A stretch of 64,000 bases of DNA. Source: Candidatus Staskawiczbacteria bacterium (GTDB taxonomy: Bacteria; Patescibacteriota; Minisyncoccia; Minisyncoccales; Staskawiczbacteraceae). Of this stretch, positions 2,590 through 42,351 are shown piece by piece. The notes below the pieces were generated by a model, which ran no database searches, was not told the origin of the DNA, and saw nothing but the letters and a program-made list of their open reading frames with translations. Position numbers and translations under genes: made by a program. The DNA lies in assembly GCA_026395215.1 (NCBI GenBank), contig JAPLZC010000006.1, forward strand, positions 8,081 through 72,080, written 5' to 3'. Numbering within the stretch: the first letter of the stretch is position 1; each line of letters opens with the position of its first letter.

Positions 2590-2667
2590 GTTGTAAGGTT
2601 ATTGCCGAAGGACGTAATGTGCGTTCTAAAACGGAATGCGGACGTTCTTTGACAAGGAGGATGTGTT

Positions 2668-3165
2668 ATGGCAACAACAAAACTGGCCAGCACGTTCACT
2701 GGGGTTCGGTACAACATTGGCGTGAGACTAGACCAACTTTTGTCGGTTGGAGACTATTTTCGAAAGGCGGGTCTCGCTGGTGATGACGAAAGGGATATTG
2801 TTGATACGTCCGGATGGAATATGAAGAACAAAACGGTAGGTGTTCGCGTTTTCGTTCCATCTGGCAATCACGGTGGAAGAAGTAATTACGAAATCTTCTG
2901 GGAGGAGATGGGCAAATTTGGTGTTACTAAAAAGAATATACGGCATGCTGAAGCAGTAACTCTACGTTGCCCGCCGGCGCCGGAACCGTGCACGGATGAT
3001 GGATATCTTGGGACTTGCTCCATATGTGGGGAAGAACACCCAGTGATTGGTCCTATTGGAGCAGAGAGGAAATTCCTTATGGGGCGTCATACTCCCCATG
3101 GTGATGATTCTAGCCTCTGTAGTGGCACTTCTGCGCTTCCCAATGGTGAAGTGCGGCGTAAATAA
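2668..3165 (+). CDS. hypothetical protein, GC-rich cassette a (165 aa, Cys-containing C-terminal half)
   Basis: ATG preceded by AAGGAGG at 7-nt spacing. GC-richer than its neighbours. Own terminator downstream. No family recognised. Confidence 0.6.
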   Translation: MATTKLASTFTGVRYNIGVRLDQLLSVGDYFRKAGLAGDDERDIVDTSGWNMKNKTVGVRVFVPSGNHGGRSNYEIFWEEMGKFGVTKKNIRHAEAVTLRCPPAPEPCTDDGYLGTCSICGEEHPVIGPIGAERKFLMGRHTPHGDDSSLCSGTSALPNGEVRRK

Positions 3166-3204
3166 CCATAGTACCTGATTTTCAGGTTGTTGCTTTGCAA
3201 CGGC

Positions 3205-3232
3205 GTCCCGATGTCACATCGGGACTTTTTTT
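3205..3232 (+). terminator. rho-independent terminator after cassette a
   Basis: gtcccgatg/catcgggac 9-bp stem, 3-nt loop, T7 run. Confidence 0.8.
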
Positions 3233-3244
3233 ATAAATTGATTG

Positions 3245-3272
3245 TTGACAAATTGGGGACTTCTGGTATACT
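3245..3272 (+). promoter_or_regulatory. sigma70-type promoter of cassette b
   Basis: TTGACA 3245-3250, 16-nt spacer, TATACT 3267-3272. The leader contains a perfect 10-bp hairpin gtagcgattt/aaatcgctac at 3309-3348. Confidence 0.55.
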
Positions 3273-3405
3273 TAAAATATTAAATTGTTCTTTGAAATTT
3301 GATTCTCGGTAGCGATTTGGAAATAAATATTTGTTTTTAAATCGCTACTGAGACAGTGGCCATGTGGGAACAAGTCCCTCATGAACCTGGAACGGGAGAA
3401 CAGAA

Positions 3406-3888
3406 GTGAGCAGGAACAGCAAGAAGGGTGATGTCCAAACAATGTCGTTAAGCCAAGGTGTGATGTTGGCGATCGACATGAACCGTGAAGCCTTGTTGAA
3501 GGTTAACGGTGGAATTCTGCACGGAATGCAGGTTAACATGGAGCTTGGCTCTGAGAGACCGGGTCGTTCGATTTTGGATCTGAGGAAGGATCCGTACTTC
3601 GACGCCGCGACCAAGGACGAGACCATACGGGTGATCACCTTCAACGGCTCAGCCATGGGCCGTAACGGATGGTTCCGTTTTACCAGCATCTGCATAATCA
3701 GTAATTTTGTGCAGAAGATGTGGGACCCGTGGTTCGTCGACGTCAAAATCGAAGACTCCGACAAACTCCGGTTCACATACGTCAGGGACCACGAAGGCTT
3801 GCCGGTTATGATTGACTGGCACGCGGTCTCAGACGATTACCCGCCTCTTTCGGAGGATACGGGCACTGAGGATGCGGACGAGGAGTAA
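3406..3888 (+). CDS. hypothetical protein, GC-rich cassette b (160 aa from GTG 3406; alternative ATG 3442)
   Basis: GGGAG lies 8 nt before GTG 3406, and GAAGGGTGA lies before ATG 3442. GC-rich coding composition with an acidic C-terminus. No family recognised. Confidence 0.55.
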   Translation: MSRNSKKGDVQTMSLSQGVMLAIDMNREALLKVNGGILHGMQVNMELGSERPGRSILDLRKDPYFDAATKDETIRVITFNGSAMGRNGWFRFTSICIISNFVQKMWDPWFVDVKIEDSDKLRFTYVRDHEGLPVMIDWHAVSDDYPPLSEDTGTEDADEE

Positions 3889-3900
3889 TATCCGCTTTAA

Positions 3901-3948
3901 AGCGCCGGAAGAGTGAGAACATCTCACTCAACCGGCGCTGTTTTTTTT
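3901..3948 (+). terminator. rho-independent terminator after cassette b
   Basis: Nested stems agcgccgg/ccggcgct and gagtgag/ctcactc followed by a T8 run. Confidence 0.85.
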
Positions 3949-3977
3949 GCAAAAAGATGGTAGAATTGTTTAATAGG

Positions 3978-4002
3978 TTAGAGGGCAGTTAGTTCACTGG
4001 TA
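3978..4002 (+). repeat. degenerate duplicate of the tRNA-Val 5' end (left direct repeat of the GIY-YIG cassette)
   Basis: ttagagggcagttagttcactggta aligns with ttagagggcacgtagctcagctggtta at 4328-4354, about 21 of 27 positions. Confidence 0.6.
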
Positions 4003-4084
4003 CCCGACCAAAGCCCGCAAGGCGGGCATTGTGACGGGCCCGTCAAAATGCGCAAAGCGCTTTTGTCGGGGAGCATCAAATTTT

Positions 4085-4342
4085 ATGTTTTACACTTACG
4101 CATTTTACGACAAAACTAGAGGAATATTTTATATCGGTTTTACTAATGATTTGAAACGCAGAGTTAAGGAACATCAATTAGGTAAAACTCAAACGACACA
4201 AAGAATGCCGGACAAATTATTAGTTTATTATGAAGCCTGTTTATCTAAGAAAGATGCAGAGGATAGAGAAAGACAATTAAAAACAGGATTTGGTAGGGGG
4301 TACCTAAAACGAAGATTGAAATATTATTTAGAGGGCACGTAG
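4085..4342 (+). CDS. GIY-YIG nuclease-domain protein (small UPF0213/YhbQ-like)
   Basis: The N-terminus FYTYAFYDKTRGIFYIGFTNDLKRRVKEHQ is a classic GIY-YIG block. Start taken at ATG 4085 rather than the GTG 4031 track start. The stop codon lies inside the first 10 nt of tRNA-Val. Confidence 0.75.
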   Translation: MFYTYAFYDKTRGIFYIGFTNDLKRRVKEHQLGKTQTTQRMPDKLLVYYEACLSKKDAEDRERQLKTGFGRGYLKRRLKYYLEGT

Positions 4343-4406
4343 CTCAGCTGGTTAGAGCGCACCATTCACATTGGTGAGGTCTGTGGTTCGAGTCCACACG
4401 CGCCCA
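4333..4406 (+). tRNA. tRNA-Val (anticodon CAC)
   Basis: Manual cloverleaf. Acceptor GGGCACG/CGCGCCC has one A-C mismatch. D arm GCTC..GAGC. Anticodon loop TTCACAT. T arm TGTGG-TTCGAGT-CCACA. Discriminator A. No encoded CCA. Confidence 0.85.
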
Positions 4407-4407
4407 C

Positions 4408-4869
4408 ATGACAGTTCAAGAGTTTAGAGAAAAAATAAAGCCATTAATAAAGTTGTCTATTGAGGGCAAAGATTTTTTGGTCAAAGAAGTTGTTAAATTT
4501 AGATTTGACGACGGAAGTTTTTATATAAAATGCTGGATTAGCGACGATTATGTGTTTGCTGACGATTTAAATGAAAATAATTTTTTATTAGTTAAAGAAG
4601 TAAAGACGCCATTTGTGGCACCGTTTGCCCAAGAATTAGAATTTGATAATAAAAAATTTAGTTTTTTATATTCGGCCCACGCAATAGCCGAAGAAATTCA
4701 GGGAGAGGAAATATTTAAAAAGGGAGAAGGCGAAAGGTTTTGGGATTATAGAGCAGAAGACAATAGTTATCTTAGTCTAGGAACAGAAGATAAAACGGGC
4801 GAAAGAGCAGATTTTTACGGAAAAATTATAGATGTTAACCTAGTGGAAATTCATGATAGCGCAATATAA
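4408..4869 (+). CDS. hypothetical protein (153 aa)
   Basis: ATG lies 1 nt after tRNA-Val. Backbone composition. Overlaps the next ORF by 17 nt. Confidence 0.55.
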   Translation: MTVQEFREKIKPLIKLSIEGKDFLVKEVVKFRFDDGSFYIKCWISDDYVFADDLNENNFLLVKEVKTPFVAPFAQELEFDNKKFSFLYSAHAIAEEIQGEEIFKKGEGERFWDYRAEDNSYLSLGTEDKTGERADFYGKIIDVNLVEIHDSAI

Positions 4870-5236
4870 AAAATTACTTTGGACGGAGCATAGTAAGATT
4901 AAGATGAGGCAGTACGGGTTGTCCAAACAAAAGTTGTTGGGGATACTTTATAAACCGGAAAGAAAAGAACAGGGGATTGTGCCCGGGACTGCCGCCGTAA
5001 TGAAAACCAACAAGACATTTTTCAGGGAAAAACAAATAAGCCTGGATAAAGCCTGGAAAAAGCCGCGTAAAGCTCCCGGAGAAATCTGGTTGATGTATAA
5101 GGATGTAAAAATGGCTATGGTGCCGGTGCGCAAAATAATCAGCGCATGGCGTTATCCGGGCATTTCTAAACCGGGAGAAGCAATTCCAATACCTGACGAT
5201 ATTAAAATTTTCTTAAATAGTGGTACAATAGAGTAA
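4853..5236 (+). CDS. hypothetical protein (127 aa)
   Basis: Overlapping-operon arrangement with both flanking ORFs. No confident family. Confidence 0.5.
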   Translation: MIAQYKKLLWTEHSKIKMRQYGLSKQKLLGILYKPERKEQGIVPGTAAVMKTNKTFFREKQISLDKAWKKPRKAPGEIWLMYKDVKMAMVPVRKIISAWRYPGISKPGEAIPIPDDIKIFLNSGTIE

Positions 5237-5625
5237 TGCAATCATCTGAAAGAAAAAATATCATATCATTGTGGCTAGTTTGGCATTTTGGAGAGATGCC
5301 GAGGTTTTTGGCTGGGGTCTGGAAAAACTATATTTTATTTGCCTCAAACTATTTTTCATTGCCAATCTTGTTAAAATCACTTTTTGCCCCATGGCGAAGG
5401 TACAGATGGAATTATCCTAAGGGTTTTCAGATTGGAGAATTTTTTACCACTCTTGTTTCTAATATTTTTTCCCGTTTGATGGGTGCCATGGTCAGGATTG
5501 TTTTAATTATTTGCGGAATTGTTTTTCAAATTTTTGTTATATTAGCAGGAGCAGTAGTTTTTATATTTTGGATATTGCTCCCTCTTATTATAATAATTGG
5601 TTTGTGGTTTGTTTTTTTCTACTAA
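5236..5625 (+). CDS. hypothetical membrane protein (129 aa)
   Basis: Strongly hydrophobic C-terminal half (IVLIICGIVFQIFVILAGAVVFIFWILLPLIIIIGLWFVFFY). Confidence 0.55.
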   Translation: MQSSERKNIISLWLVWHFGEMPRFLAGVWKNYILFASNYFSLPILLKSLFAPWRRYRWNYPKGFQIGEFFTTLVSNIFSRLMGAMVRIVLIICGIVFQIFVILAGAVVFIFWILLPLIIIIGLWFVFFY

Positions 5626-5640
5626 ACATAAATTAAAAAG

Positions 5641-8181
5641 ATGGATTTTTATTTTAAAAACACAAAGATTTTCTTAGCTTTAAAGAGGGCGCGATTTCCT
5701 TTATTTAGGTTCGCGGGATTTTTGAAAAATCTTTTTTTGGTTTTGTTTGTATTAGAAGCAATATTACTAGTGGTGGCGCAAAGCCATAATGCGGAAAAAA
5801 CGCTAATTTTATTTTTATTGTTGTATCTTGTCTTTTGGAATTTTGAGTTATTTTTGAGGTTGAAAATAAAAAGACCAAGCACTAATTTAAAAATTGAAGG
5901 TGCTGTTTTAAGCCCCAATGATTATAATCTGGCCGAGCTTTTAAGTTTTAATATGGCCACGGTTGTTTTAGAAGCAATAAATTTTTCTAAGAAAAAGAGA
6001 ATTCCAGTTAGTTCAACATCACTTCTTTATTCTGCGGTAAGGTATGGTAGAGATGTAAATCTAATTTGTTTGCGTTTAGGAATAAATCCTAAAAAATTGC
6101 AATCTGATATCAAAAATTATTTAGAAAAAACTGAGAAACATAATGTTACTGGGGAATTGTTTTCAGAAGATTTTAAAAAAGTAATAAGTAACGCGCTTAA
6201 ACTATCTGCGGATAGGGGACATAAATATATTGGGCAAAATGAGGTTTTGGTTGCTTTAGCCAAAGAAGATGATTTTTTTAAAAAAACACTGGTAGAGTTT
6301 GATCTCAAACCCGAAGATGTTGATAACTTAACATTATGGGTATCTTCGGCAGTAGATTTGGCAGATAGTAATAAAAAGTTTTGGACTTATGAAAATTTGG
6401 CGAGAAAAGGGTCGCTGGGTAAGAATTTTTCATCAGGATATACCATAACACTGGATAAATATGCAATTGATTGGAGAAAATATGTTTCGCAATGGAGGTT
6501 TACGGAAATTATTGGTCATGAAAAAGAAATAGACCAAGTTGAGGTAATTTTGGCAAAATCTAGTATGGCCAATGTGTTGATTGTGGGTGACGCGGGGGCA
6601 GATAGAAAAAGTATTGTTAAGGCAATAGCTCACAAATGTTATTTGGGAACAACTTTGCCCGAGTTAAACAACAAAAGGGTTGTGGAGCTAGATGTTGTTT
6701 CATTGGTTACCCAGATTTCTGATTTTGAAAAAGTAGAATATGTGCTAGGCCAGATTTTTTTGGAAGTTGCAATGTCAGGCTCTGTGATTTTAGTAATTGA
6801 TAACTTAGAAAACTTTGTGGGACAGAATGTGCAAAAAGCCGGCGCATTTGATATTTCAGGAGTGCTTTCAAAATATTTGCCTTTGCGTAACTTTCAGCTT
6901 GTTTGTTTGACTTCTCAAGATGGCTTGCACAAAAACATAGAAAAAGAGGCAGGGCTTGCTAATTCATTTGGGAAGGTTGAGGTTGTAGAAGTCACAGAAT
7001 TAGAAACAATAAATATTTTGCAATCAGTTGCTTTGGATTTGGAATACGTGCATAAGGTTTTGGTTTTGTATCCTTCTATTCGTGAGATTGTAAATTTGAC
7101 CGCGCGATATATGCCAAGTTTGCCTTTTCCTAAAAAGGCTTTAGATGTTTTGGAGGAATCAGTTGTCTACGTGCAAAAATTACGCGAAAAAATTGTTTTG
7201 CCCCACCACATAGCTGAAATTATTTCTAAAAAAACAGATATACCTGTTGGAAAAATGGAGGTAAAAGAAAAAGAGGTTTTGCTTAATTTGGAAAATTTAA
7301 TTCATAACAGAATTGTTAACCAAGAAGAAGCGGTTAGCCAAATATCTATTGCAATGAGGCGAGCCAGAATGGGAATTGCCTCAAAAACAAGGCCAATGGG
7401 AACATTTTTATTTTTGGGCCCAACGGGAGTGGGCAAGACTGAAACTGCAAAAGCTTTGGCCCAAATATATTTTGGATCTGAGAAAAAAATGATAAGGCTT
7501 GATATGTCAGAGTTTCAGGCAATTTCAGATATTCCAAGATTATTAGGAGCTACTTCTCCGGTTGAAATGCAAGGACTTTTAACAACACCTGTTAGAGAAG
7601 CACCGTTTTCTCTAATTTTGTTAGATGAAATAGAGAAAGCCCACCCTAATATTTTAAATTTGTTTTTGCAGGTTTTAGATGAAGGCCATATAACCGACGG
7701 GCAGGGCAGGAAAGTTGTTTTTGCAAATACAATTATAATTTGTACATCAAACGCCGGCGCCGATATGATTTTTAAGCAAGTAGAAGCTAGTCAAGCAGTT
7801 GAGAAAGATAAATTACTAAGTTCTCTCTTCGAAAAAAATATTTTCAGACCGGAATTTGTAAACCGTTTTGACGCTACTATAATTTTCCATCCTTTAACAA
7901 AAGACAACTTAATGAAAATTGCTCAGTTGTCTTTGCAGGGTTTACAAAAAGGTTTGAAGGAAAGGGATATAGATTTTATAATTACAGAATCACTCAAAGA
8001 AAGAATTGTAGAATTATCTTATAAGCCCGAGTTCGGCGCCAGAGAAATGCGAAGAGTTGTCCAAGATAAAGTGGAAAATGCGGTTGCCACAGCTCTTCTA
8101 TCTGATAAAATAAAAAAAGGAGATAAGTTTGAAATTAACCCAGAAAATTTTGAAATATTTATAAATCCCCCAAAGCCGTAA
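5641..8181 (+). CDS. Clp/Hsp100-family AAA+ ATPase, membrane-anchored, with a degenerate first nucleotide-binding domain
   Basis: NBD2 has Walker A GPTGVGKT, Walker B LILLDEIEKAH, TSNAG and FRPEFVNRFD. The N-terminus has two hydrophobic helices. The NBD1 P-loop reads GDAGADRKS and its Walker B reads VIDNLE. Confidence 0.8.
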   Translation: MDFYFKNTKIFLALKRARFPLFRFAGFLKNLFLVLFVLEAILLVVAQSHNAEKTLILFLLLYLVFWNFELFLRLKIKRPSTNLKIEGAVLSPNDYNLAELLSFNMATVVLEAINFSKKKRIPVSSTSLLYSAVRYGRDVNLICLRLGINPKKLQSDIKNYLEKTEKHNVTGELFSEDFKKVISNALKLSADRGHKYIGQNEVLVALAKEDDFFKKTLVEFDLKPEDVDNLTLWVSSAVDLADSNKKFWTYENLARKGSLGKNFSSGYTITLDKYAIDWRKYVSQWRFTEIIGHEKEIDQVEVILAKSSMANVLIVGDAGADRKSIVKAIAHKCYLGTTLPELNNKRVVELDVVSLVTQISDFEKVEYVLGQIFLEVAMSGSVILVIDNLENFVGQNVQKAGAFDISGVLSKYLPLRNFQLVCLTSQDGLHKNIEKEAGLANSFGKVEVVEVTELETINILQSVALDLEYVHKVLVLYPSIREIVNLTARYMPSLPFPKKALDVLEESVVYVQKLREKIVLPHHIAEIISKKTDIPVGKMEVKEKEVLLNLENLIHNRIVNQEEAVSQISIAMRRARMGIASKTRPMGTFLFLGPTGVGKTETAKALAQIYFGSEKKMIRLDMSEFQAISDIPRLLGATSPVEMQGLLTTPVREAPFSLILLDEIEKAHPNILNLFLQVLDEGHITDGQGRKVVFANTIIICTSNAGADMIFKQVEASQAVEKDKLLSSLFEKNIFRPEFVNRFDATIIFHPLTKDNLMKIAQLSLQGLQKGLKERDIDFIITESLKERIVELSYKPEFGAREMRRVVQDKVENAVATALLSDKIKKGDKFEINPENFEIFINPPKP

Positions 8182-8200
8182 ATTAAATTCTAAATTAAAA

Positions 8201-8225
8201 CTCGGGCAAACAAGCCCGAGTTTTT
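8201..8225 (+). terminator. rho-independent terminator after the clp-like gene
   Basis: ctcgggc/gcccgag stem, 6-nt loop, T5 run. Confidence 0.8.
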
Positions 8226-8263
8226 AGTTATTGACAAATTCGTAAAATGCTATAAACTGGAGT

Positions 8264-8323
8264 GACAACTCTGGTCTTTGACATTTTACAGTTTTTATCT
8301 TTGCCCGCAAAGCAAAGAGCTGT
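8264..8323 (+). repeat. 60-nt shared 5' leader, copy 1 (upstream of the FucI-like gene)
   Basis: gacaactctggtctttgacattttacagtttttatctttgcccgcaaagcaaagagctgt is identical to 10157-10216 except for one A/G difference. It starts at the predicted +1 of a TGcTATAAA extended -10 (8248-8256). It contains the ctttgc-cc-gcaaag inverted repeat. Confidence 0.85.
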
Positions 8324-8359
8324 TTTTGTGTTGAAGTCCAGAAAGCAGGGGAGTAGGAA

Positions 8360-10015
8360 ATGAGTAGTTCAAAGTTATATCCGCCGATAGTATTCGGCGT
8401 GTTTGGTACATTCGATCCGCGACTGGATGGCGCTGGCCCTCAGGACCGCGAACGGTCGAACTTCATCGTGAAAATGACCGCGGCAATGATTGCGGATCAT
8501 GTGAAAATGCCGGACGGTAATCCGGTGAACGTGTTTGAACCAAAAACCTTGGTTGGTGGTGAAAGGGATGCTGACATTGTCGCCGGAATGTTCAAAGGTG
8601 CCGGCGTGCAAGTTCTTGTTTGCGTTTCCGACACCTGGGCATATCCCGGCAAGACCGCGATTGCACTGGCAAATCACTTCCCAAACGACATGCCCCTGCT
8701 TCTTCTCTGCGGTAACTCGGCGCCCAAACCGGGAGTGGTTTTTGACCACGCCTGCAGCGGTGCCTTTGCGCAGATGGGACGCAAGGCTTATCTCATTGTT
8801 GGTACCTGGGACGATGTTGGCCAGAAACCGGTGATGACCGTAGAGACCGCCAGCGAACTGATTTCCTGGTGCTACGGCATGTTGCCCAAAGCCGGCTGGA
8901 AGGGAAAGCGTCTGCTTTTCCACGGCGCTCATTCCATGGAAATGGAAACTGCGATGGCGCATGTCATTGCTACCCGGAATCAGTTCGGGGTGCATATTTC
9001 CATGAACGACATGACCGAAGTCTCCGACCGTCTCACCAAGCGAGAGTACAGCGATTCCGAGCTTTATAACCTTCGCAGATGGATGGACAGGATGCTCGGC
9101 AAACGCATTCAGATTCGGAATGTCGAAGATGAGGGAAAATTCCAGCAAGAGCTGGCTATGTACCTCATCACGCGTAACCTCATGAACGAGGTCAATGCAA
9201 TCGGCGGCGGGTTTATGTCTCAGCTCTCGTGGGGCTCGGACAAACGCATTTTGCCTCGGCCGGTTGCCGATGCAATGGAAAGTCTTCACAACAGTACATT
9301 TGACCATAACGGCCCCAAAACACCCAGGCCCTATGCAACGGAGTCAGACGCACAAGGCGGGTTGACAATGTTGCTGCAGTTCTGGATCTCCGGCGGTATG
9401 CCTCCGCTTTTCGCGGACTTCCGCAAGGTGTGGGAGGCCAATGATTTGGCTGATGTGGCCGCCAGTCTGAAAGTGGTACTCTCTGATGATGGGTGGGCCA
9501 AGCGAGGAATTGTTGATTACGACAACTCCGGTTCGGCCTCGTTCAACTGGGCTGGAAAACCCGGCATGACGGCCGAGGAATGCACGGCCAAGGTCTCAAT
9601 GCCTTTGGCTGATGAATTTTATTTTCCCGGCGGAGGTAACAGTGTGACATTCATGACTCCTGGCGACATTGACATGTTGACCGGCCGGCTCTGGTATGTT
9701 CAGTCCAAAGACAGGTGGGCGCTTACCTGGGACGACGCAGTTACCTGCGAACTTCCCGCTCCGCTGGCCAACAAACTCGCCAGTCTGTCTTCGCCTGGCT
9801 GGCCACACACATGGGTCATGTTTAAGAACTTTGAGCTGGCGCTGGTCAAGCACATTTCGCCCGCCAACCACTGGCACGCAGTCTGGAACACAGACCGCCG
9901 GCGGCTGATGTATGCCATGGATGCCTTGGGTATCCAGGACCTGCATGCTTCCAAGTTCCCAGCGTACACCCCCGGGCACGACATCCCGCCAACACTGCTT
10001 TCGCTGATCAAGTAG
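8360..10015 (+). CDS. L-fucose isomerase family protein (FucI-like aldose-ketose isomerase), GC-rich cassette c
   Basis: These blocks align with E. coli FucI as I recall it: NSTFDHNG..YATESDAQGG (NSSFDWNG..VATENDSLNG), FADFRKVW (FADVRTYW), DNSGSA (INSGSA), FPGGGNSVTF (FRGGGYSSRF), WPHTW (WPTTW) and ANH. GGGGAG lies 6 nt upstream of the ATG. Confidence 0.8.
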   Translation: MSSSKLYPPIVFGVFGTFDPRLDGAGPQDRERSNFIVKMTAAMIADHVKMPDGNPVNVFEPKTLVGGERDADIVAGMFKGAGVQVLVCVSDTWAYPGKTAIALANHFPNDMPLLLLCGNSAPKPGVVFDHACSGAFAQMGRKAYLIVGTWDDVGQKPVMTVETASELISWCYGMLPKAGWKGKRLLFHGAHSMEMETAMAHVIATRNQFGVHISMNDMTEVSDRLTKREYSDSELYNLRRWMDRMLGKRIQIRNVEDEGKFQQELAMYLITRNLMNEVNAIGGGFMSQLSWGSDKRILPRPVADAMESLHNSTFDHNGPKTPRPYATESDAQGGLTMLLQFWISGGMPPLFADFRKVWEANDLADVAASLKVVLSDDGWAKRGIVDYDNSGSASFNWAGKPGMTAEECTAKVSMPLADEFYFPGGGNSVTFMTPGDIDMLTGRLWYVQSKDRWALTWDDAVTCELPAPLANKLASLSSPGWPHTWVMFKNFELALVKHISPANHWHAVWNTDRRRLMYAMDALGIQDLHASKFPAYTPGHDIPPTLLSLIK

Positions 10016-10052
10016 CGACCAGTTGGTGGTAGTCATACATAAAAATATCCTT

Positions 10053-10096
10053 ATCCTTGTGTAGTCTCTTCGGAGATTGCGCAAGGATTTTTTTTG
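10053..10096 (+). terminator. rho-independent terminator after cassette c
   Basis: 16-bp stem including G-U pairs, with a TTCG tetraloop and a T8 run. Confidence 0.85.
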
Positions 10097-10156
10097 CATA
10101 AAAACTATTGTGCGACAATTTGTTTGACAAAAGAGGAAAATAATGTAAAATAATAA

Positions 10157-10216
10157 GACAACTCTGGTCTTTGACATTTTACAGTTTTTATCTTTGCCCG
10201 CAAAGCAGAGAGCTGT
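10157..10216 (+). repeat. 60-nt shared 5' leader, copy 2 (upstream of the XylA-like gene)
   Basis: Same 60-mer as 8264-8323 with one substitution. Preceded by TTGACA 10124-10129, a 16-nt spacer and TAAAAT 10146-10151. Confidence 0.85.
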
Positions 10217-10252
10217 GTGGTATTTAGGCTAGAGAGAAAGAAGGCAGGAACA

Positions 10253-11413: not shown

Positions 11414-11443
11414 CCCCGAGTTAACAGCTCGGGGATTTTTTTT
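11414..11443 (+). terminator. rho-independent terminator after cassette d
   Basis: ccccgag/ctcgggg stem, 7-nt loop, T8 run. Confidence 0.85.
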
Positions 11444-11477: not shown

Positions 11478-11637
11478 TTGACATAAAAGTGTAACGGAGT
11501 AATATAAAGCCATGAATAAAAACTTTGCCCTATTGTTAAGCTTGTTGTTATTGGACAAACAGTCTAGGGGGTTTTTGATAAAATAAACACAAAATAAAAT
11601 TACATATCAAAAAATCCTCCTAGAAAGAGGATTTTTC
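11478..11637 (+). promoter_or_regulatory. promoter plus a leaderless Leu-rich leader peptide and terminator/antiterminator (putative attenuator) of cassette e
   Basis: TTGACA 11478-11483, 16-nt spacer, TAATAT 11500-11505. ATG 11512 sits at the predicted +1. The 24-codon ORF 11512-11586 is MNKNFALLLSLLLLDKQSRGFLIK (8 Leu). Terminator hairpin atcctc/gaggat is at 11614-11632 followed by TTTT. The upstream ctaggggg (11564-11571) can pair with cctcctag (11616-11623). Confidence 0.45.
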
Positions 11638-11687: not shown

Positions 11688-11969
11688 ATGTCCATTGTCA
11701 CAACAAAAGAACTTACGCACAAATTCGTCGTTCCAACAACGCGCCACCCAGAGTACGGTTGGTTCTATGCTTTCGTTTTTAGCGTAGATCAAAACGAAAT
11801 CTGCAAACTACTTGCGTGGTGGAGTGCGAATATTTGTAGAGAGATTTGGGTGCCAGTGGGAACAATCGAGTCGTTCACGTTGTTTGATAATGATAAAGAG
11901 GCTAAAGCATGTTTAGAAGAAAGAAAATCGGCCTCATCCAATCCAAAAGGTTGTCGGCTTCGTTGCTGA
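11688..11969 (+). CDS. hypothetical protein, GC-rich cassette e (93 aa)
   Basis: ATG 11688 preceded by AAAGGA at 8-nt spacing. Own terminator. No family recognised. Confidence 0.55.
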   Translation: MSIVTTKELTHKFVVPTTRHPEYGWFYAFVFSVDQNEICKLLAWWSANICREIWVPVGTIESFTLFDNDKEAKACLEERKSASSNPKGCRLRC

Positions 11970-11986: not shown

Positions 11987-12012
11987 GCCTCACTTCGGTG
12001 GGGCTTTTTTTT
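11987..12012 (+). terminator. rho-independent terminator after cassette e
   Basis: gcctcac/gtggggc stem, TTCG loop, T8 run. Confidence 0.8.
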
Positions 12013-12573: not shown

Positions 12574-12658
12574 CATTAACGAATAACGAATCTATTACAA
12601 ATATACGAATTCGTAAATTTGTACGGAATTCGTAATTCGATGATAGAGCAAAGCGATT
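12574..12658 (+). repeat. intercistronic AT-rich word-palindrome element, family B copy 1 (mraZ-rsmH spacer)
   Basis: About 85% identical to 13547-13634. Arms are built from acgaat/attcgt words around the core tacgaattcgta 12604-12615. Ends gagcaaagcgatt directly before the ATG. Confidence 0.75.
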
Positions 12659-26603: not shown

Positions 26604-26622
26604 ACGTGTTGTTTAGTAGTTC

Positions 26623-27660: not shown

Positions 27661-27664
27661 GCAT

Positions 27665-27702: not shown

Positions 27703-27744
27703 GTTTGAAAATTTAAAATTGTAAATTGAAAATTAAATCTTGGC

Positions 27745-37495: not shown

Positions 37496-37509
37496 CAAAT
37501 TTGTTTTAT

Positions 37510-38178
37510 TTATTGTACTATTTTCCATTCTATTTCTTCTTTTTTTCCGGCGTATTCTAGCCATTCGCCGTCTTTTATTACAAACCATTTCTTTTTGGTT
37601 TCGGAGAAAATCATTGGATCGCCTCTATAAAATGGTTTTTTAACTATTTCTTTTGGCTTTAATCTATCTAGTTCAAGCCATTTTTTGAAAACAGTCTCAA
37701 TAGTATAATCTAGTTTTCTAGAATTTGCCCAATTGGCAATCTTGGTTATTGCTTCTTTTGAAGCCTCAACCGAACCTGCTAAATCCAGCAATTGCTTTGC
37801 GGGTTTAGTATACCTAGAATATATTATCTTCCTCTTTTTAGCATTTTCTTTTAATTCTTGCAACCCCAACCCCTTTGTCTGGAAAAAGTGCGCAATTACA
37901 TTCTGTATAGCCGTTTCCTCGTTTAGCTCTTCAAATTCTTTAATTCTTTCATGTTTTATATACTCCTCAATCTTCTTGGCATTCTTCTCCCCAATGCCCA
38001 ATTCCCGTATTCCCTTAAGTCCTTTCTCTTTATATATATCACTAATATCAACCTTCAAATGATTCAAAATATTGATGGCATTCCTATAAGCCCTAATTTT
38101 GTAACTCAAAGCCTTATCTCCCTTAATCTCCAGAAGCCTAATAGTCTCCCCAAATATTTCCGCTATTTCTTTGTTCAT
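37510..38178 (-). CDS. helix-hairpin-helix domain protein (PolX N-terminal-like)
   Basis: The N-terminus NKEIAEIFGETIRLLEIKGD..YRNAINIL..IRELGIGEKNAKKIEEYI resembles the 8-kDa/HhH region of family X polymerases. No polymerase domain is present. Confidence 0.45.
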   Translation of the reverse strand: MNKEIAEIFGETIRLLEIKGDKALSYKIRAYRNAINILNHLKVDISDIYKEKGLKGIRELGIGEKNAKKIEEYIKHERIKEFEELNEETAIQNVIAHFFQTKGLGLQELKENAKKRKIIYSRYTKPAKQLLDLAGSVEASKEAITKIANWANSRKLDYTIETVFKKWLELDRLKPKEIVKKPFYRGDPMIFSETKKKWFVIKDGEWLEYAGKKEEIEWKIVQ

Positions 38179-38359
38179 GCACCTTCATTTTATCACAAGC
38201 GCAGGGAAGTGGCACTATTGACATTGTCATATTATATTGTAATATAAGAATAATTCTTATTCGGATGGATAAGTCGTCCTTAGCGAGAGCGAAGGATAAG
38301 GAGGTTCTAGTCTTGCCTCAACTCAAGACTGATTAGTACAAATACAAAGGAGGTGCCGT

Positions 38360-38698
38360 ATGGCACGCTTCACAATCACAAACGGTCCCAGCAAATGGGA
38401 GTTTATCTTGGCTATCTTCGACGGGGATTCCCGTGCCCGGAGAGCCGTCACATTCGTTCTTAATGATCCCCGACGTGAACTGTCAGAGGATTATGGAGAG
38501 GTGGTATTGGATGATGCCAATCCTCCTTATCTTACCTTTGTCATCAACGGGGCTGAGAGGGTAGATGGTAGCGATGACAACTGGCATTTCAAGGGTTTTT
38601 ACCCTCACGCCACGGGTCACATCTTTGCGAGGGGTACCTTCTCTACCAAAGACCGCAAAGGATGGGTGGAGTGGGATTGTGACTACTCGAACTCCTAA
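38360..38698 (+). CDS. hypothetical protein, GC-rich cassette h (112 aa)
   Basis: Promoter TTGACA 38218-38223, 16-nt spacer, TAATAT. Strong AAGGAGGTG 4 nt before the ATG. Own terminator. No family recognised. Confidence 0.6.
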   Translation: MARFTITNGPSKWEFILAIFDGDSRARRAVTFVLNDPRRELSEDYGEVVLDDANPPYLTFVINGAERVDGSDDNWHFKGFYPHATGHIFARGTFSTKDRKGWVEWDCDYSNS

Positions 38699-38728
38699 GT
38701 CCTAGATGGTCAGAAGATCAATTCTTTA

Positions 38729-38767
38729 CCTCAGTCAGTATGGAAGCTGATTGGGGTTCTTTTTTTG
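38729..38767 (+). terminator. rho-independent terminator after cassette h
   Basis: 10-bp stem cctcagtcag/ctgattgggg including G-U pairs, followed by a T-rich run. Confidence 0.7.
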
Positions 38768-38797
38768 GAGAAATATGGTAACATTAAAAAATAAATT

Positions 38798-38899
38798 ATG
38801 GAAAAACGACACAGAATATTTGTGGCGATTAATTTGCCGGGGGAGAGTTTGTTCGACGTCCGACATCGAACAAACTTAAAATTTTGGTATAATAAATAA
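38798..38899 (+). pseudogene. displaced 5' fragment of thpR fused to element sequence (33 codons)
   Basis: MEKRHRIFVAINLP matches the thpR N-terminus MEKRHRVFVAINLP. The reading frame runs through hairpin H1. Its TAA stop abuts the ATG of the HUH gene. Confidence 0.6.
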
Positions 38900-39667
38900 A
38901 TGGCTTATATACGTCCACAATTAATTAATGATGAATATTATCATATTGTAAGCAAAACTGTTGGTGATACGGTTGTATTTGAGAAGGAGGACGATTTTTT
39001 TCGAGGTATTTTTTCTATTTATGAATTTAATAATGCTAACCCCGTAAGCATATCTCGGAGACGGCGTGATCGTAAAACGGAAAAGAAACTAGAAAAACAA
39101 AATGTTCAACGTCCGACGTCGAACAATTTAGTTGATAAAAGAGATAGATTTGTAGATATTCTTGCTTTTTCTTTTATGCCGAATCATTTGCATTTAATTT
39201 TGAAACAGTTAAAGGACAACGGAATAACTGAATTCATGAAGAAGGTTAACGGTGGGTACGCAAAGTATTTTAATGAAAGATATAAAAGGCAAGGGCATTT
39301 ATTTAATAAGTTTCGAGCAGTGCACATTGAGGATGACAATCAACTGGAAACCGCCTTCGTGTATGTGCATACGAATTTGATATCTATGATAAAGCCTGGT
39401 TGGAAAGAAAAAGGAATAAATAATTCTGATAAAGTAATAAAATTTTTAGAGAATAATAAGCGGCATAGCTATATGGACTATCTTGGGAAAAAAGCCTTTC
39501 CGTCCGTAACACAAAGAGAATTTTTTCTGGAAGCTATGGGCGGGGTAGATGGATGTAAAACATTTGTTGATGCACGGATAAATCATAAAAAAGAATTAAA
39601 AGACTGGAGTGATATTGTTCTAGAATAATTAAAATTGTTCAACGTCGGACGTCGAACAACTATATTT
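38839..39667 (+). mobile_element. HUH/RAYT-like element with REP-like terminal hairpins inserted in the 5' end of thpR
   Basis: Bounded by 41-bp imperfect direct repeats (38798-38838 / 39668-39708). Hairpin H1 is at 38846-38876 and H3 at 39635-39659, with their loops inverted (tccga versus tcgga). The internal copy H2 is at 39103-39125. Confidence 0.6.
38900..39628 (+). CDS. HUH Y1 transposase-like protein (IS200/RAYT family)
   Basis: HUH motif in FMPNHLHLILKQ and a Tyr motif in FVYVHTNLI. 242 aa. Confidence 0.65.
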   Translation: MAYIRPQLINDEYYHIVSKTVGDTVVFEKEDDFFRGIFSIYEFNNANPVSISRRRRDRKTEKKLEKQNVQRPTSNNLVDKRDRFVDILAFSFMPNHLHLILKQLKDNGITEFMKKVNGGYAKYFNERYKRQGHLFNKFRAVHIEDDNQLETAFVYVHTNLISMIKPGWKEKGINNSDKVIKFLENNKRHSYMDYLGKKAFPSVTQREFFLEAMGGVDGCKTFVDARINHKKELKDWSDIVLE

Positions 39668-40246
39668 ATGGAAAAGAGACATCGAGTATTTGTGGCGATT
39701 AATTTGCCTCATGAGATTAGGAAGGAGCTTTTTGAGTATTCGGAAAAGCATTTGGATTTGCCGGCAAAATGGACTGCAAAAGACAATTTGCATATTACGT
39801 TGGAATTTTTGGGAGCGTTGACTGATGAGGAAGCTGGGGAAGTTTGTTTAGCCGTAAAAGAAGTTGCTGAAAGACATAGCAGTTTTTCTTTGAATTTGAA
39901 TAAAATTTTATATGGGCCTCCTAATCTAAAAGCTGGTCAGGCGCCAAAGTTTGTTTGGGCCGAGGGGGATAAATCAGAAGAGTTGTCAGCACTGCGCGAA
40001 GATTTGGAAAATTCTTTAGCTGAGAAAGTTGCTTTTGTCCCAGAAAACAGAGTTTTTGCTCCGCATATTACGTTGGCCCGCATCAGCTCATGGGAATGGA
40101 AAGCAATTGAACCTGAAGAAAGACCCGAAATAAACGAAAATCTAGATTTACTTTTTACTGTAGAATCCATTGAAGTTATGGAATCGGAAAAAAGAAAAGA
40201 TGGGCAGGTTTACACGGTTTTAGAATCTCATCAATTAAATAATTAA
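39668..40246 (+). CDS. thpR: RNA 2',3'-cyclic phosphodiesterase / 2'-5' RNA ligase family (ThpR/LigT)
   Basis: Two HxT motifs (HITLEFLG, HITLARI). Start taken at ATG 39668 rather than the track start at 39635. Confidence 0.85.
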   Translation: MEKRHRVFVAINLPHEIRKELFEYSEKHLDLPAKWTAKDNLHITLEFLGALTDEEAGEVCLAVKEVAERHSSFSLNLNKILYGPPNLKAGQAPKFVWAEGDKSEELSALREDLENSLAEKVAFVPENRVFAPHITLARISSWEWKAIEPEERPEINENLDLLFTVESIEVMESEKRKDGQVYTVLESHQLNN

Positions 40247-40267
40247 TATAATAATAATTTTAAAAAT

Positions 40268-40486
40268 ATGTTTGAAGAATTAAAAACGCGAGAACCTGGA
40301 GACAATCCAGACAAAAAATTTACAATTAAAATTATTTGTAGCTGGTGTGAAAAAGATATGGGCACAAAAGAGGCAGAGGAACCAGGGGAGACTCATAGTA
40401 TCTGTCCAGATTGCAAGAAGAAATTTGTCGATGAATTTGAAGAAAACAAAAACACCAATAATCCTGAAAAGGAAGAAGCAGCATAA
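40268..40486 (+). CDS. small zinc-ribbon protein (72 aa)
   Basis: CSWC..CPDC pairs. Backbone composition. Confidence 0.5.
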   Translation: MFEELKTREPGDNPDKKFTIKIICSWCEKDMGTKEAEEPGETHSICPDCKKKFVDEFEENKNTNNPEKEEAA

Positions 40487-40493
40487 TTTTAAA

Positions 40494-41786
40494 ATGAAGA
40501 TACATTTGATTGGAATTGGGGGGATAGGGGTGTCGGCGTTGGCACAATACTATTTGGCAAAGGGGCACGAGGTTAGTGGCTCTGATTTGGTTGCTTCGGA
40601 AATTACGGAATTTTTGAAAAAAAGGGGTGTTGAGATTTTTATTGGAAATTCTGCTGAAAATATAAAACAGGATTTAGATTTAGTGGTGTACAGCCCAGCA
40701 GTAAAGTCTGATAATCCAGAGTATAAAAAGGCAAAAGAGCTGGAAATAAAAACCCAGAGTTATCCTGAAGCGCTGGGGGATTTAACTAGGGAATATTTTA
40801 CAATTGCGGTTTCGGGAGCGCATGGAAAAAGCACAACAACTGCAATGATTGCTTTAATTTTATCAGCGGCGGGGTTAGATCCAACGGTTATTGTTGGCAC
40901 AAAATTAAAGGAATTTGGGAATAGTAATTTTAGAATAGGAAAAGGTAGATTTTTAGTTATAGAGGCTTGTGAATATGATTCTTCATTTTTAAATTATTCG
41001 CCAAAAATAATTGTAGTAACAAATGTTGATAAAGAACATTTGGATTATTTTAAAACTTTTGAAAACGTGAAGAAAGCTTTTGAGAATTTTATTGTGCGAC
41101 TACCAGCGGATGGGTTTTTAGTTTTTAACAAAGACGACAAAAATATTTTATTACCTAAGAAATTTGATTTTAAGGTTTCCAGTTTTTTCTTAAAACAGAA
41201 GGAAGCTAAAAAGGTTAAAATAATGTTGCAGGTGCCCGGTCAACATAATATCTCAAACGCGTTGGCAGCTTTGCAGGTAGCAAGAATTATGCGAATTCCC
41301 GATATTATTTCTTTTAAAGCGCTTTCTGAGTTTCAAGGAACATGGAGGAGATTTGAAGTAAGAGAGGCTAATATAAATGGGAAAAAAGTAACAGTTATTT
41401 CTGACTATGCGCATCACCCTAACGAAATTTCGGCAACCTTACAGGCTGCACGAGAAAAATATGGGAAAGAAAGAATTTGGTGTATTTTCCAACCGCATCA
41501 ACATCAAAGAACGTTTTATTTATTTGATGACTTTGTTAAAACTTTTAGAAAAGCCAAAATAGACAAAATAATTATTACAGACATCTACGACGTAGCCGGT
41601 AGAGAAGAGAAAAGTATAAATGAAGAAGTAAGTTCAGAAAAATTAGTAAAAAAAATAAACCGAAAGAATGTTTCATATTTACCAATGAATAGTTTAGAAA
41701 AATATATCACAGAGAATGTCAAAAGCGGGGAAGTGCTAATAATAATGGGCGCCGGAGACATTTATAAACTTGCTGATAAGTTTTAG
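40494..41786 (+). CDS. murC: UDP-N-acetylmuramate--L-alanine ligase
   Basis: MKIHLIGIGGIGVSALA Rossmann start and P-loop GAHGKSTTT. Start taken at ATG 40494 rather than 40347. Confidence 0.9.
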   Translation: MKIHLIGIGGIGVSALAQYYLAKGHEVSGSDLVASEITEFLKKRGVEIFIGNSAENIKQDLDLVVYSPAVKSDNPEYKKAKELEIKTQSYPEALGDLTREYFTIAVSGAHGKSTTTAMIALILSAAGLDPTVIVGTKLKEFGNSNFRIGKGRFLVIEACEYDSSFLNYSPKIIVVTNVDKEHLDYFKTFENVKKAFENFIVRLPADGFLVFNKDDKNILLPKKFDFKVSSFFLKQKEAKKVKIMLQVPGQHNISNALAALQVARIMRIPDIISFKALSEFQGTWRRFEVREANINGKKVTVISDYAHHPNEISATLQAAREKYGKERIWCIFQPHQHQRTFYLFDDFVKTFRKAKIDKIIITDIYDVAGREEKSINEEVSSEKLVKKINRKNVSYLPMNSLEKYITENVKSGEVLIIMGAGDIYKLADKF

Positions 41787-41829
41787 GGCCGGATATTGAC
41801 ACAGGATCCTGTTGTGATATGATTAACAT

Positions 41830-42078
41830 ACATTGAAAATTACAAAACCGTTGAGTTAGGTCCTTTGGTTCCCAAGACCAGAGGGTGGGCCTAATTCGCC
41901 CCGTCATCCGACAGGGCAAGGTGATTCTTGCGTAAGTGAGAGTCCGGCTTCCTCCGTAATCATAGGATAACTGCTTCTATAAGAGTCAGTGAGAACAAAC
42001 AAAGGTGGTACCACGAGATAATTCCTCGTCCTTTGCGCTCCGACATTACGTCGGAGTCCAGAGGACGGGGATTTTTTT
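41830..42078 (+). ncRNA. T-box riboswitch leader (antiterminator/terminator resolved, Stem I not resolved)
   Basis: Promoter TTGACA 41796-41801, 16-nt spacer, TGaTATGAT 41815-41823. T-box core AAAGGUGGUACCACGAG at 42001-42017. The antiterminator is aaagg/ccttt plus acgag/ctcgt with a UGGUACC bulge. The competing terminator pairs 42024-42035 with 42059-42070, with the inner stem ctccgac/gtcggag, followed by a T7 run. Confidence 0.75.
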
Positions 42079-42107
42079 GTACATTCACAACTAATTAGGA
42101 GAGTGCC

Positions 42108-42296
42108 ATGGCTGAGAAAGAAAAACCAAAAGAAATTTGCCAGCAATGCGGAAAAACGTTGCCTATTTTGGATGACAAAGGGCGACCCAATTTTCGTACG
42201 GTTGGAGGCGAAGGTTTTGGTGCCGTAAGGAAACGTATTTGCAGGTACTGCCCAGATGAACCAAGGCGGATGAAGCCTGTTGGATTTGGGCAGTAA
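42108..42296 (+). CDS. zinc-ribbon mini-protein, GC-rich cassette i (62 aa)
   Basis: AGGAGA lies 6 nt before the ATG. CQQC..CRYC pairs. Sits immediately downstream of the T-box terminator and has its own terminator. Confidence 0.55.
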   Translation: MAEKEKPKEICQQCGKTLPILDDKGRPNFRTVGGEGFGAVRKRICRYCPDEPRRMKPVGFGQ

Positions 42297-42316
42297 AACT
42301 CTCCATACATGCAAAA

Positions 42317-42351
42317 AAGCGAGTACTCACAGGGTCTCGCTTTCTTTTTTT
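42317..42351 (+). terminator. rho-independent terminator after cassette i, upstream of tyrS
   Basis: aagcgag/ctcgctt stem, 12-nt loop, T-rich run. Confidence 0.7.

Follow-up and report, generated by a model that had tools for sequence, protein, structure and literature searches.

GC-rich, Shine-Dalgarno-led single-gene cassettes at variable junctions in an AT-rich Candidatus Staskawiczbacteria genome

The locus and its host

The stretch of DNA considered here (the window) comprises 64,000 nucleotides of contig JAPLZC010000006.1, from a Candidatus Staskawiczbacteria bacterium of the candidate phyla radiation (CPR), and our subject is a set of nine GC-rich genes that stand singly in its AT-rich backbone, each preceded by a Shine-Dalgarno (SD) motif. 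We refer to these in order as cassettes a to i. All nine open reading frames (ORFs) were found at the positions at which an initial annotation had placed them, and they and the promoters, leaders and terminators described below for them all lie on the forward strand. For the backbone, the names given to the genes for L7/L12, MraZ, a Mur ligase, tyrosyl-tRNA synthetase (TyrRS) and a helix-hairpin-helix (HhH) protein proved correct, and the gene called prmC corresponds to a small methyltransferase; the backbone also encodes a large Ig-like surface protein, and the window carries an L10 leader (recognised by Rfam) and three tRNA genes.

The host is a member of Candidatus Staskawiczbacteria. Relatives of its Clp-like ATPase (5641-8181), with 60-87% amino acid identity, are nearly all found in metagenome-assembled genomes (MAGs) of that group, and the database entry that matches the cassette c protein exactly is 'hypothetical protein NTW11_01170 [Candidatus Staskawiczbacteria bacterium]', on a contig of 88.7 kb. 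Some of the GTDB records among the relatives of the ATPase appear to be mislabelled.

Composition of cassettes and backbone

The greater GC content of the cassettes, noticed in the initial annotation, is borne out by calculation: mean GC is 0.490 in the cassettes and 0.363 in 51 backbone genes, and mean GC at third codon positions (GC3) is 0.521 against 0.306 (Mann-Whitney p ~2-3e-6 for both). A blind filter, set to pick out genes with a GC content at least 0.07 above the median, recovered eight of the nine cassette regions and nothing else in the 64 kb. The excess ends at the edges of the ORFs, cassette promoters, leaders and terminators having mostly 0.33-0.40 GC. The set is not, however, uniform. 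GC3 is strongly atypical only in b, c, d, g and h (0.55-0.70, z = 6-9), while in a, e, f and i it is about 0.40-0.42 (z ~2-2.6) and most of the excess falls at codon positions 1 and 2. Ribosomal-protein genes in the window do not have raised GC3.

So abrupt a switch in composition might be seen if GC-rich pieces of other organisms had been joined into an AT-rich contig during assembly or binning, a danger to which the initial annotation had drawn attention, and Logan unitigs do break at a repeat shared by the leaders of c and d. This explanation is effectively refuted. Independent Logan assemblies from two sequencing runs are 100% identical to the window at 4041-8293, 8285-10186, 37822-46168 and 38107-41978, and the retrieved contigs thus cover four junction regions (the a/b and f/g junctions lie outside them). 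Contig L002 (L numbers here and below designate retrieved contigs and loci) runs from Clp to the leader of c and L001 covers c, while L118 spans the HhH gene, h, a Y1 transposase gene, thpR and murC, and L117 runs on through i, tyrS and aspS. The contig breaks beside c coincide with a 51-nt exact repeat, the common leader of c and d, which is longer than the apparent overlap at the breaks (~30 nt) and explains them. Moreover, the same arrangement is seen at these junctions in sibling MAGs that come from unrelated studies.

Translation and transcription signals

SD-dependent initiation was recognised by a purine-rich motif, complementary to the 3' tail of 16S rRNA, 4-12 nt before the start. With a generic anti-SD tail (CACCUCCUUUC, which may not be that of the host), the mean free energy (dG) of the SD duplex was -9.6 kcal/mol for the cassettes against -1.4 for the backbone, and a dG of -6 or below was found for all nine cassettes but only two of the 51 backbone genes (Fisher p = 4e-9), in full agreement with the initial claim that SDs mark the cassettes and are mostly missing elsewhere. 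One exception is rplJ, behind the Rfam L10 leader; the other, at 4085, is a GIY-YIG gene. GC content alone does not generate such motifs, since only ~12% of internal ATGs in GC-rich ORFs are preceded by SD-like sequences and the cassettes themselves are preceded by AT-rich non-coding DNA. Nor is SD use itself foreign: the presence of an SD before native rplJ, behind its autoregulatory leader, suggests that SD recognition is probably native to this ribosome. We infer that the SDs of the cassettes would be functional. When the start region (-30 to +30) was folded, the minimum free energy was -9.1 kcal/mol for the cassettes against -5.3 for the backbone (p = 0.004), and this greater structure fits a need for SDs in the cassettes that would not exist at AT-rich starts.

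The two sets of genes also have different promoters, contrary to the suggestion that the cassettes had been supplied with local promoters like those of backbone genes. A perfect -35 TTGACA, separated by 16 or 17 nt from a -10 box of the form TAnnnT, precedes six cassettes (b, c, d, f, g and h) as well as the modules before e and i, and is followed by a 5' untranslated region (5'UTR), whereas the backbone layout is that of an extended -10 box and a leaderless start. Eight of the nine cassettes therefore have a promoter of their own, as first proposed (e and i by way of their modules), but for cassette a the promoter scan found none that passed. Canonical TTGACA promoters in the window map almost solely to cassettes and to the leadered native genes rplJ (with its L10 leader) and rplU. 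The hairpin terminators with T-runs that had been predicted were found after all nine cassettes. The leaders of 70-290 nt that had been described need some revision, in that the 'leader' of e is a leaderless short ORF (sORF) for a Leu-rich peptide of 24 amino acids together with a putative attenuator, and that of i is a candidate T-box leader.

In the backbone, an extended -10 box (TGnTAnnnT) ends exactly 6 nt before the ATG of seven window genes. When window and siblings were considered together, ORF-starting ATGs followed such boxes at 6 nt in 35 cases and at 8 nt in 23, with 0-2 cases at 3-5 nt, and control ATGs that do not open long ORFs gave no 6-nt peak. From this spacing, the backbone looks to be largely leaderless. 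Internal genes of backbone operons also lack SDs. The idea that two initiation regimes exist side by side in one genome has thus survived, with SDs on the cassettes and characteristically spaced -10 boxes, without SDs, in the backbone.

Backbone boxes 6 nt before the ATG can be seen, for example, at the genes at 5236, 26675, 38900, 47093, 54226, 55727 and 60145. Certain of the backbone boxes fall inside the 3' end of the preceding gene, which suggests that even tightly packed backbone genes may have leaderless promoters of their own. There are also near-identical upstream regions shared by unrelated backbone genes: 2091-2141 and 28493-28543 (rplL and the gene at 28542), and 12567-12662 and 13542-13638 (rsmH and the gene at 13635). 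Both pairs contain the palindrome ACGAATTCGT (seven matches with at most one mismatch, against 1.4 expected), and the shared regions may represent a common operator or promoter module.

Turnover at conserved junctions

Two scans of genome collections yielded ~40 and ~69 syntenic loci, summarised here as ~60 sibling loci. Backbone gene order is strongly conserved across the siblings, and variable gaps, the shortest of tens of bases and the longest of over 3 kb, are found between rplL and the next gene, Clp and mraZ, rplU and prmC, prmC and a PD-(D/E)XK gene, the HhH gene and thpR, and murC and tyrS. The inserts in siblings are often GC-richer than their own backbone, as are all seven of those between prmC and the gene at 27745 (0.42-0.54 against 0.33-0.40 GC). 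They include genes for 2-isopropylmalate synthase (LeuA) between Clp and mraZ in four genomes (in one as an apparent pseudogene), for a PurC/PurE fusion and PurB between prmC and the gene at 27745, and for PyrB and PyrF between rplU and prmC, as well as for many small proteins. Among ORFs of at least 100 amino acids in the variable gaps, a strong SD (dG <= -7) was present before 26 of 35 GC-rich ORFs and 6 of 62 others (p = 1e-10, from siblings that are not independent of each other); cruder tests of GC and SD in siblings pointed in the same direction.

No homologue of cassettes b to h was detectable in the ~60 sibling loci (the only match for f, in L070, was weak, with E = 0.003). The absence of b to h from siblings, and the presence of other inserts at the same junctions, support the initial description of the cassettes as accessory and variable, but this does not extend to a, which recurs in L038, or to i, which recurs in L062, L072, L082 and L105.

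The enzyme genes among the sibling inserts are informative about how such junctions may have been filled. At the same junction, PyrB proteins are 46-49% identical and PurC/E proteins 53-63%, against 77-88% for the flanking backbone, and the GC content at fourfold-degenerate sites (GC4) of their genes extends from a host-like 0.27-0.30 to 0.68; the PyrB gene of L066, at the host-like end of this range, has kept a strong SD. LeuA, on the other hand, has diverged in step with the backbone (L003 and L011 share 70.7% identity in LeuA and 72-86% in backbone proteins), and with a GC4 of 0.40-0.51, against 0.30-0.47 for Clp, its gene is nearly ameliorated at fourfold sites. The divergence of inserts beyond that of their flanks, the range of GC4 and the behaviour of LeuA together favour hot spots at which genes were repeatedly acquired or replaced and then ameliorated.

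Apart from the duplicated leader of c and d, no flanking direct or inverted repeats indicative of mobility were found, and neighbouring genes with a connection to mobility are circumstantial only (the GIY-YIG gene and a tRNA-Val gene after b, and the Y1 transposase gene after h). A phage or defence origin was considered and rejected, none of the cassette proteins giving a PHROG or PADLOC hit, and IMG/VR contained no relatives of a, b or d. The possibility of integron- or transposon-like cassettes was likewise set aside, as there were no attC-like or terminal inverted repeats (intI was not searched for with a model).

Sugar-isomerase cassettes

Cassette c consists of a promoter (TTGACA-N16-TAAACT) and structured leader of ~95 nt (8231-8359), an ORF for a protein of 551 amino acids of the L-fucose/D-arabinose isomerase family (8360-10015; GC 0.55, GC3 0.64) and a terminator (10053-10088). 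It is followed by cassette d, with a promoter (TTGACA-N16-TAAAAT) and a leader that duplicates that of c (10124-10252), an ORF for a class-I-like xylose isomerase TIM barrel of 377 amino acids (10253-11386; GC 0.52, GC3 0.60) and a terminator (11414-11434). The c protein matches the Pfam Fucose_iso N1 and N2 models above their cutoffs (92.5 and 50.7 bits) and the C model below it (25.2 against 29.3 bits), reaches 150 and 124 bits with NCBIfam equivalog models whose cutoffs are 775 and 850, and matches PDB entries 3a9r/4c22 with E ~1e-30. It is therefore predicted to be a divergent member of the family, and family membership does not assign it a substrate. Similarly, the d protein scores 164.5 bits with NCBIfam TIGR02631, below the equivalog cutoff of 447, and matches PDB 1bxb, a solved class I enzyme (E = 4e-42), so that by homology it appears clearly related to class I xylose isomerases, though divergent.

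The leaders of the two cassettes are near-identical (8264-8323 and 10157-10216), with an exact core of 51 nt (8264-8314), and are predicted to fold into a long hairpin. The same core lies upstream of a 76%-identical homologue of c in L045 (~340-445), which indicates that the leader is part of the cassette itself and was not added locally; the initial view that promoters were supplied locally consequently does not hold for c, where promoter and leader travel with the gene. No Rfam family corresponds to the leader, which may be an undescribed cis-regulatory RNA.

Relatives of c are found on three contigs at 72-76% identity, after which identity drops to ~54%, the homologues at this level being, where named, from Planctomycetota, Phycisphaerae and Acidobacteriota. 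In L043, the c relative has a GC content of 0.57 among neighbours of 0.29-0.37, and L045 is similar, both being at different loci from that in the window. The third close relative, L044, is on a short contig of 0.55 GC and adjoins a GC-rich PyrF-like gene; this contig could come from a reservoir organism, or the two genes could be adjacent cassettes. At fourfold sites of conserved residues, the c copies are 0.39-0.46 identical, compared with 0.38-0.45 for sibling backbone genes and a chance level of ~0.26; their GC4 is 0.52-0.76, compared with ~0.30 for the Clp gene of the window, and their non-coding flanks are host-like (~0.37 GC). We considered, and rejected, the possibility that c and d derive from a split donor operon: a c homologue with ~53-55% identity stands alone in two non-CPR contigs, of which one belongs to a Phycisphaerae MAG, with no xylose-isomerase-like neighbour.

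Cassettes with candidate attenuators

T-box leaders and leader-peptide attenuators are classical systems of Firmicutes and Proteobacteria, and cassettes e and i appear to be preceded by versions of them. The module before e (11478-11637) consists of a TTGACA-N16-TAATAT promoter, a leaderless sORF (11512-11586; MNKNFALLLSLLLLDKQSRGFLIK, 24 amino acids, of which seven are Leu) and an antiterminator/terminator pair, with the terminator hairpin at ~11609-11636. The 3' end of the sORF, GGAGGUUUUUGAUAA, is complementary to the 5' arm of the terminator that follows (UAUCAAAAAUCCUCC / GGAGGAUUUUU). The module occurs directly after Clp in 13 genomes (the window, L003, L005, L007, L009, L010, L011, L013, L016, L019, L022, L033 and L038), and the sibling sORFs are likewise Leu-rich. 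The antiterminator (A:B) helix can pair in 92.7% of cells over the 13 genomes, against 39-75% when slid; with one compensatory pair and most pairs invariant, covariation support is weak. We regard the module as a candidate leucine leader-peptide attenuator. It shares with the classical systems a Leu-rich sORF and mutually exclusive antiterminator and terminator helices, but differs from them in that the leader peptide would itself be leaderless, and in that the gene that it would control in the window is an ORFan and not leuA. The next gene is LeuA in L003, L011, L033 and L038. In the window its place is taken by the ORFan e, and L007, L009 and L010 have other small ORFs there. Cassette e itself (11688-11969) is an ORF of 93 codons (GC 0.43) with the SD AAAGGA and a terminator at 11987-12004, and has no homologue in the sibling loci.

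In L033, whose Clp is the most similar to that of the window among the loci from the genome collections (87% identity), the GC-rich LeuA cassette between Clp and mraZ (12761-14221) is broken into three ORFs, either as a decaying pseudogene or through assembly indels.

The region before i (41796-42078) comprises a promoter (TTGACA-N16-TATGAT), a T-box-like element (41842-42036) and a terminator (~42020-42078). The element matches the T-box family RF00230 with 39 bits (E = 2e-7 in a search of 341 nt), below the gathering score of 93, and elements at the same junction in L062 (13573-13763; 49 bits) and L072 (13166-13352; 43 bits) also fall below it. The sequence AAAGGUGGUACCACGAGA aligns to the T-box motif, a terminator hairpin with a U-run comes next, and tyrS lies downstream, a layout that is the same in L062 and L072. 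We take it to be a candidate divergent T-box leader. What it has in common with classical T-box systems is the RF00230-like leader, the GGUGGUACC motif, the terminator and the position upstream of tyrS; what sets it apart, besides scores below the Rfam gathering level, is that the first gene downstream encodes a zinc-ribbon mini-protein and not a synthetase.

This mini-protein, of 62 amino acids with a CxxC...CxxC pattern, is the product of cassette i, which extends over 42108-42351 and has the SD AGGAGA and a terminator (~42316-42351); the initial annotation gave its ORF as 42108-42296. It is followed by tyrS with its own extended -10 promoter, TGGTATTAT. Between murC and tyrS, L062 and L072 have the same succession of T-box, SD, CxxC...CxxC mini-protein, terminator, promoter and tyrS. 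Homologues of the cassette i protein in L062, L082 and L105 are weak but consistent in position, and there is a similar protein in L072, so i seems not to be unique cargo but a zinc-ribbon mini-protein conserved by position.

A 'TTCACAAC' motif common to the upstream regions of e and i was tried as a further signal and rejected, as it is not enriched in the window. An E-value scan of the regions of a, b, c, f, g and h with Rfam revealed no credible riboswitch.

The remaining small cassettes

Cassette a (2668-3165) has an ORF of 165 codons (147 according to NCBI; GC 0.49, GC3 0.42) with the SD AAGGAGG. The protein has a betaalphabetabetaalphabeta-like N-terminal domain and a conserved Cys-rich motif at its C-terminus. 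A positional homologue in L038 is 39% identical, both genes being GC-rich with strong SDs, and eight distant relatives are 29-59% identical. On these alignments, a would come from a family that is small and evolves fast, the Cys-rich C-terminus being conserved. A single-sequence AlphaFold model reached a predicted local distance difference test (pLDDT) score of 54, too poor for a fold search.

The promoter of cassette b lies at 3245-3272 (TTGACA-N16-TATACT, extended by a TG), and in the 5'UTR after it is a hairpin (3304-3353) with 25-nt arms and a predicted stem of ~23 bp (fold z = -6.0). The ORF of b (3406-3888; GC 0.53, GC3 0.70) specifies 160 amino acids from a GTG start, or 148 from the ATG at 3442 preferred by NCBI, and has GC contents of 0.51/0.37/0.70 at codon positions 1/2/3; a terminator follows at ~3901-3948. 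The protein is an ORFan, finding only itself among 5.8e9 clustered proteins. Downstream, in the region 3958-4407, the GIY-YIG gene (4085-4342) is AT-rich yet SD-led, and lies between a tRNA-like 5' fragment (~3975-3995) and the tRNA-Val gene (4333-4407). The fragment resembles the beginning of the downstream tRNA, and the arrangement could be the footprint of homing or integration at a tRNA gene.

Cassette f (26242-26641) has its promoter at 26242-26269, a leader of ~66 nt, an ORF of 86 codons (26343-26603; GC 0.45) and a terminator at 26623-26641. In cassette g (27313-27703), the promoter (27313-27341) and a leader of ~64 nt precede an ORF (27412-27660) for a basic protein of 82 amino acids (GC3 0.55), with no homologue in sibling loci, and a terminator is at ~27665-27703. 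Cassette h (38218-38757), whose junction is confirmed by Logan contigs L117 and L118, has a promoter at 38218-38245, a leader of ~108 nt, the SD AAGGAGGTG and a terminator at 38728-38757. Its ORF (38360-38698; GC 0.51) encodes an ORFan of 112 amino acids, with no homologue among the 5.8e9 clustered proteins, and a single-sequence AlphaFold model was all-beta with a pLDDT of 44, again too poor for a fold search.

Beside h is a gene for a Y1 (IS200-like) transposase (38900-39628), flanked by palindromic hairpins at 38849-38879, 39103-39129 and 39629-39659. This element has inserted beside thpR, and the first ~43 nt of thpR are duplicated (38796-38838 and 39666-39708).

Origin and maintenance of the cassettes

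We consider it on the whole likely that the cassettes are plug-in or regulated genes with leaders and SD-dependent initiation, situated at hot spots of turnover, that several of them were acquired laterally and have ameliorated to different degrees, and that the core of the genome is leaderless or lacks SDs. The AT-rich core genes would be either leaderless, with TGnTAnnnT 6 nt before the ATG, or internal operon genes without SDs, in each case with weakly structured starts. A second class, including all nine cassettes, would have a sigma-70 promoter with -35 and -10 boxes, a 5'UTR, an SD, a single ORF and an intrinsic terminator, and the 5'UTR would sometimes be a recognisable regulator (the T-box of i, the Leu attenuator of e, the shared structured leader of c and d). 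Such units would occupy a few inter-operon junctions that are hot spots of gain, loss and replacement throughout the clade. An mRNA with a 5'UTR and a structured, GC-richer start would presumably need an SD to recruit the 30S subunit. As to the direction and timing of transfers, we infer that many of the units would have come from GC-richer gene pools and ameliorated to various extents (c, d, b, g and h least; a, e and f being more ameliorated or older), and that a few, i and probably a, would be old residents with a mild GC excess mainly at codon positions 1 and 2.

Several points weigh against this interpretation. The sibling counts are not phylogenetically independent, and sibling starts were picked by a crude ORF caller. 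There is no 16S 3' end within the window or the fetched loci to supply the anti-SD sequence of the host. The rule that a leadered gene has an SD is not absolute, as rplU is leadered yet has none. No donor lineage was identified, b and h being without homologues and identity to c falling to ~54% outside the group at 72-76%. Finally, the retention of high GC4 by c is not predicted by simple amelioration in AT-rich hosts: given the divergence at fourfold sites, it requires that a GC-rich reservoir has gone unsampled or that synonymous sites are under selection.

How far do other explanations account for the same observations? The initial annotation saw all nine cassettes as recent foreign cargo from GC-rich donors, fitted with local promoters of the backbone type and retaining the SDs of the donor. 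A foreign, GC-richer origin is plausible for c and d and may hold for b, g and h as well. In favour of the annotation are the strongly atypical GC3 of these five, the lack of b to h in the ~60 sibling loci, the host-like composition (0.33-0.40 GC) of promoters, leaders and terminators but not of ORFs, and the apparently repeated replacement of the enzymes at sibling hot spots. A uniformly foreign set is, however, not supported, given the conservation in position, in siblings, of i with its T-box, of the attenuator of e and of a. In addition, the TTGACA promoters and long UTRs of the cassettes differ from the leaderless, extended -10 type of the backbone, the leader of c moves with its gene (as the 76%-identical homologue elsewhere shows), searches with c, b and h produced no close donor, and native rplJ also uses an SD. 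In this strict form, foreign cargo seems to us a doubtful explanation, though one with some appreciable chance of being right. At the opposite extreme, the cassettes might be native, long-term residents of the flexible genome in which selection (for mRNA stability or codon choice, say) or a biased process such as GC-biased conversion at recombination hot spots holds synonymous sites GC-rich. This would accommodate the GC4 of 0.52-0.76 in c despite near-saturated synonymous divergence and AT-rich flanks, the GC richness and strong SDs of both a homologues at only 39% identity, and the association of GC with SDs across the clade. It sits badly with LeuA, the best case of vertical residence, which is nearly ameliorated, with the PyrB gene of L066, where GC4 is host-like and the SD is kept, and with the great heterogeneity of GC3 among cassettes (0.40-0.70), while the ordinary GC3 of ribosomal-protein genes argues against translational selection; we judge it distinctly improbable.

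A different kind of doubt concerns the smallest ORFs, since e, f and g, and possibly b and h, could conceivably be non-coding, the units specifying small RNAs or being the remnants of decaying cassettes. No homologues of them were found, and the single-sequence structure models, of h and a, are of low confidence; moreover, e occupies the position of LeuA in siblings and could represent a remnant context, and the LeuA cassette of L033 seems to be in decay. Nevertheless, each of these ORFs comes with a promoter, a terminator and an SD at the right distance, b has a strong codon-position periodicity, and a and i, equally small or odd, proved to have relatives, so that we think a non-coding nature unlikely.

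Relation to known systems

Horizontally acquired islets of atypical composition, which in the model attributed to Lawrence & Ochman reportedly ameliorate towards the host, are the nearest precedent. Shared features are the atypical GC and GC3, presence and absence among relatives, recurrent junctions and a gradient of GC3 that fits different residence times. The present case differs in that the islets are single genes, each with a complete set of promoter, leader, SD and terminator; that neither an integrase nor att sites or flanking repeats came to light, and donors are not identifiable; and that the imports are GC-richer than the host, foreign DNA being more often AT-richer. Integron cassettes too are single-gene units that stand head to tail at one recurring site and differ in content among relatives, but the units described here have their own promoters and terminators, lack attC-like or shared recombination sites and occupy at least six junctions, not one array.

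Mixtures of leaderless and SD-led genes are found in Mycobacterium and other actinobacteria and in Deinococcus, and genomes with such mixed initiation are said to form 'group C' of GeneMarkS-2. They have in common with our window a -10 box at a fixed short distance before many ATGs, alongside SD-led genes. Here, by contrast, few genes are SD-led, and these stand apart in composition and are for the most part accessory; GC content marks the line between the two classes, and internal genes of backbone operons also lack SDs. The leaderless transcriptome of M. tuberculosis is cited in PMC12641261. The two initiation regimes are thus real but not in themselves new; what is unusual is the clean split by composition and accessory status.

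Lateral transfer has been described as shaping the sparse accessory metabolism of CPR bacteria (Jaffe et al. 2020, PMC7304191). Patchy enzymes, which vary among close CPR relatives and were apparently gained independently, are common to that study and to our loci, where they are sugar isomerases, Pur and Pyr proteins and LeuA; the passages searched mention neither compositional signatures nor junctions acting as hot spots, and neither expression modules of single genes nor any connection with the signal for translation initiation. A literature search found no paper linking CPR, leaderless initiation, SDs and GC-rich accessory genes.

Implications for gene expression and genome evolution in CPR bacteria

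The separate ingredients (lateral transfer with atypical GC, amelioration and mixed modes of initiation) are already known. CPR bacteria are, however, uncultured, so that their gene expression is largely a matter of inference, and the window with its ~60 sibling loci provides a clean natural contrast. It may be useful in flagging flexible or acquired genes in such genomes from the sequence alone, and as a warning to gene callers that one genome may need two models of start. It makes testable the question of how acquired genes are expressed where native genes mostly dispense with ribosome-binding sites, and it adds two candidate regulatory RNAs in a CPR lineage, the divergent T-box and the leucine leader-peptide attenuator.

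A more far-reaching possibility, to which we attach only a slim chance, is that Staskawiczbacteria, and perhaps many Paceibacteria, possess a dedicated plug-in layer of SD-led single-gene modules, swapped at fixed sockets, with GC content actively maintained and with separate routes of initiation for core and accessory genes. If this were so, either a shared GC-rich gene pool or vector that has gone unsampled or selective pressure on synonymous sites would maintain the GC content, and the two routes of initiation would separate, or differentially regulate, the core and accessory proteomes.

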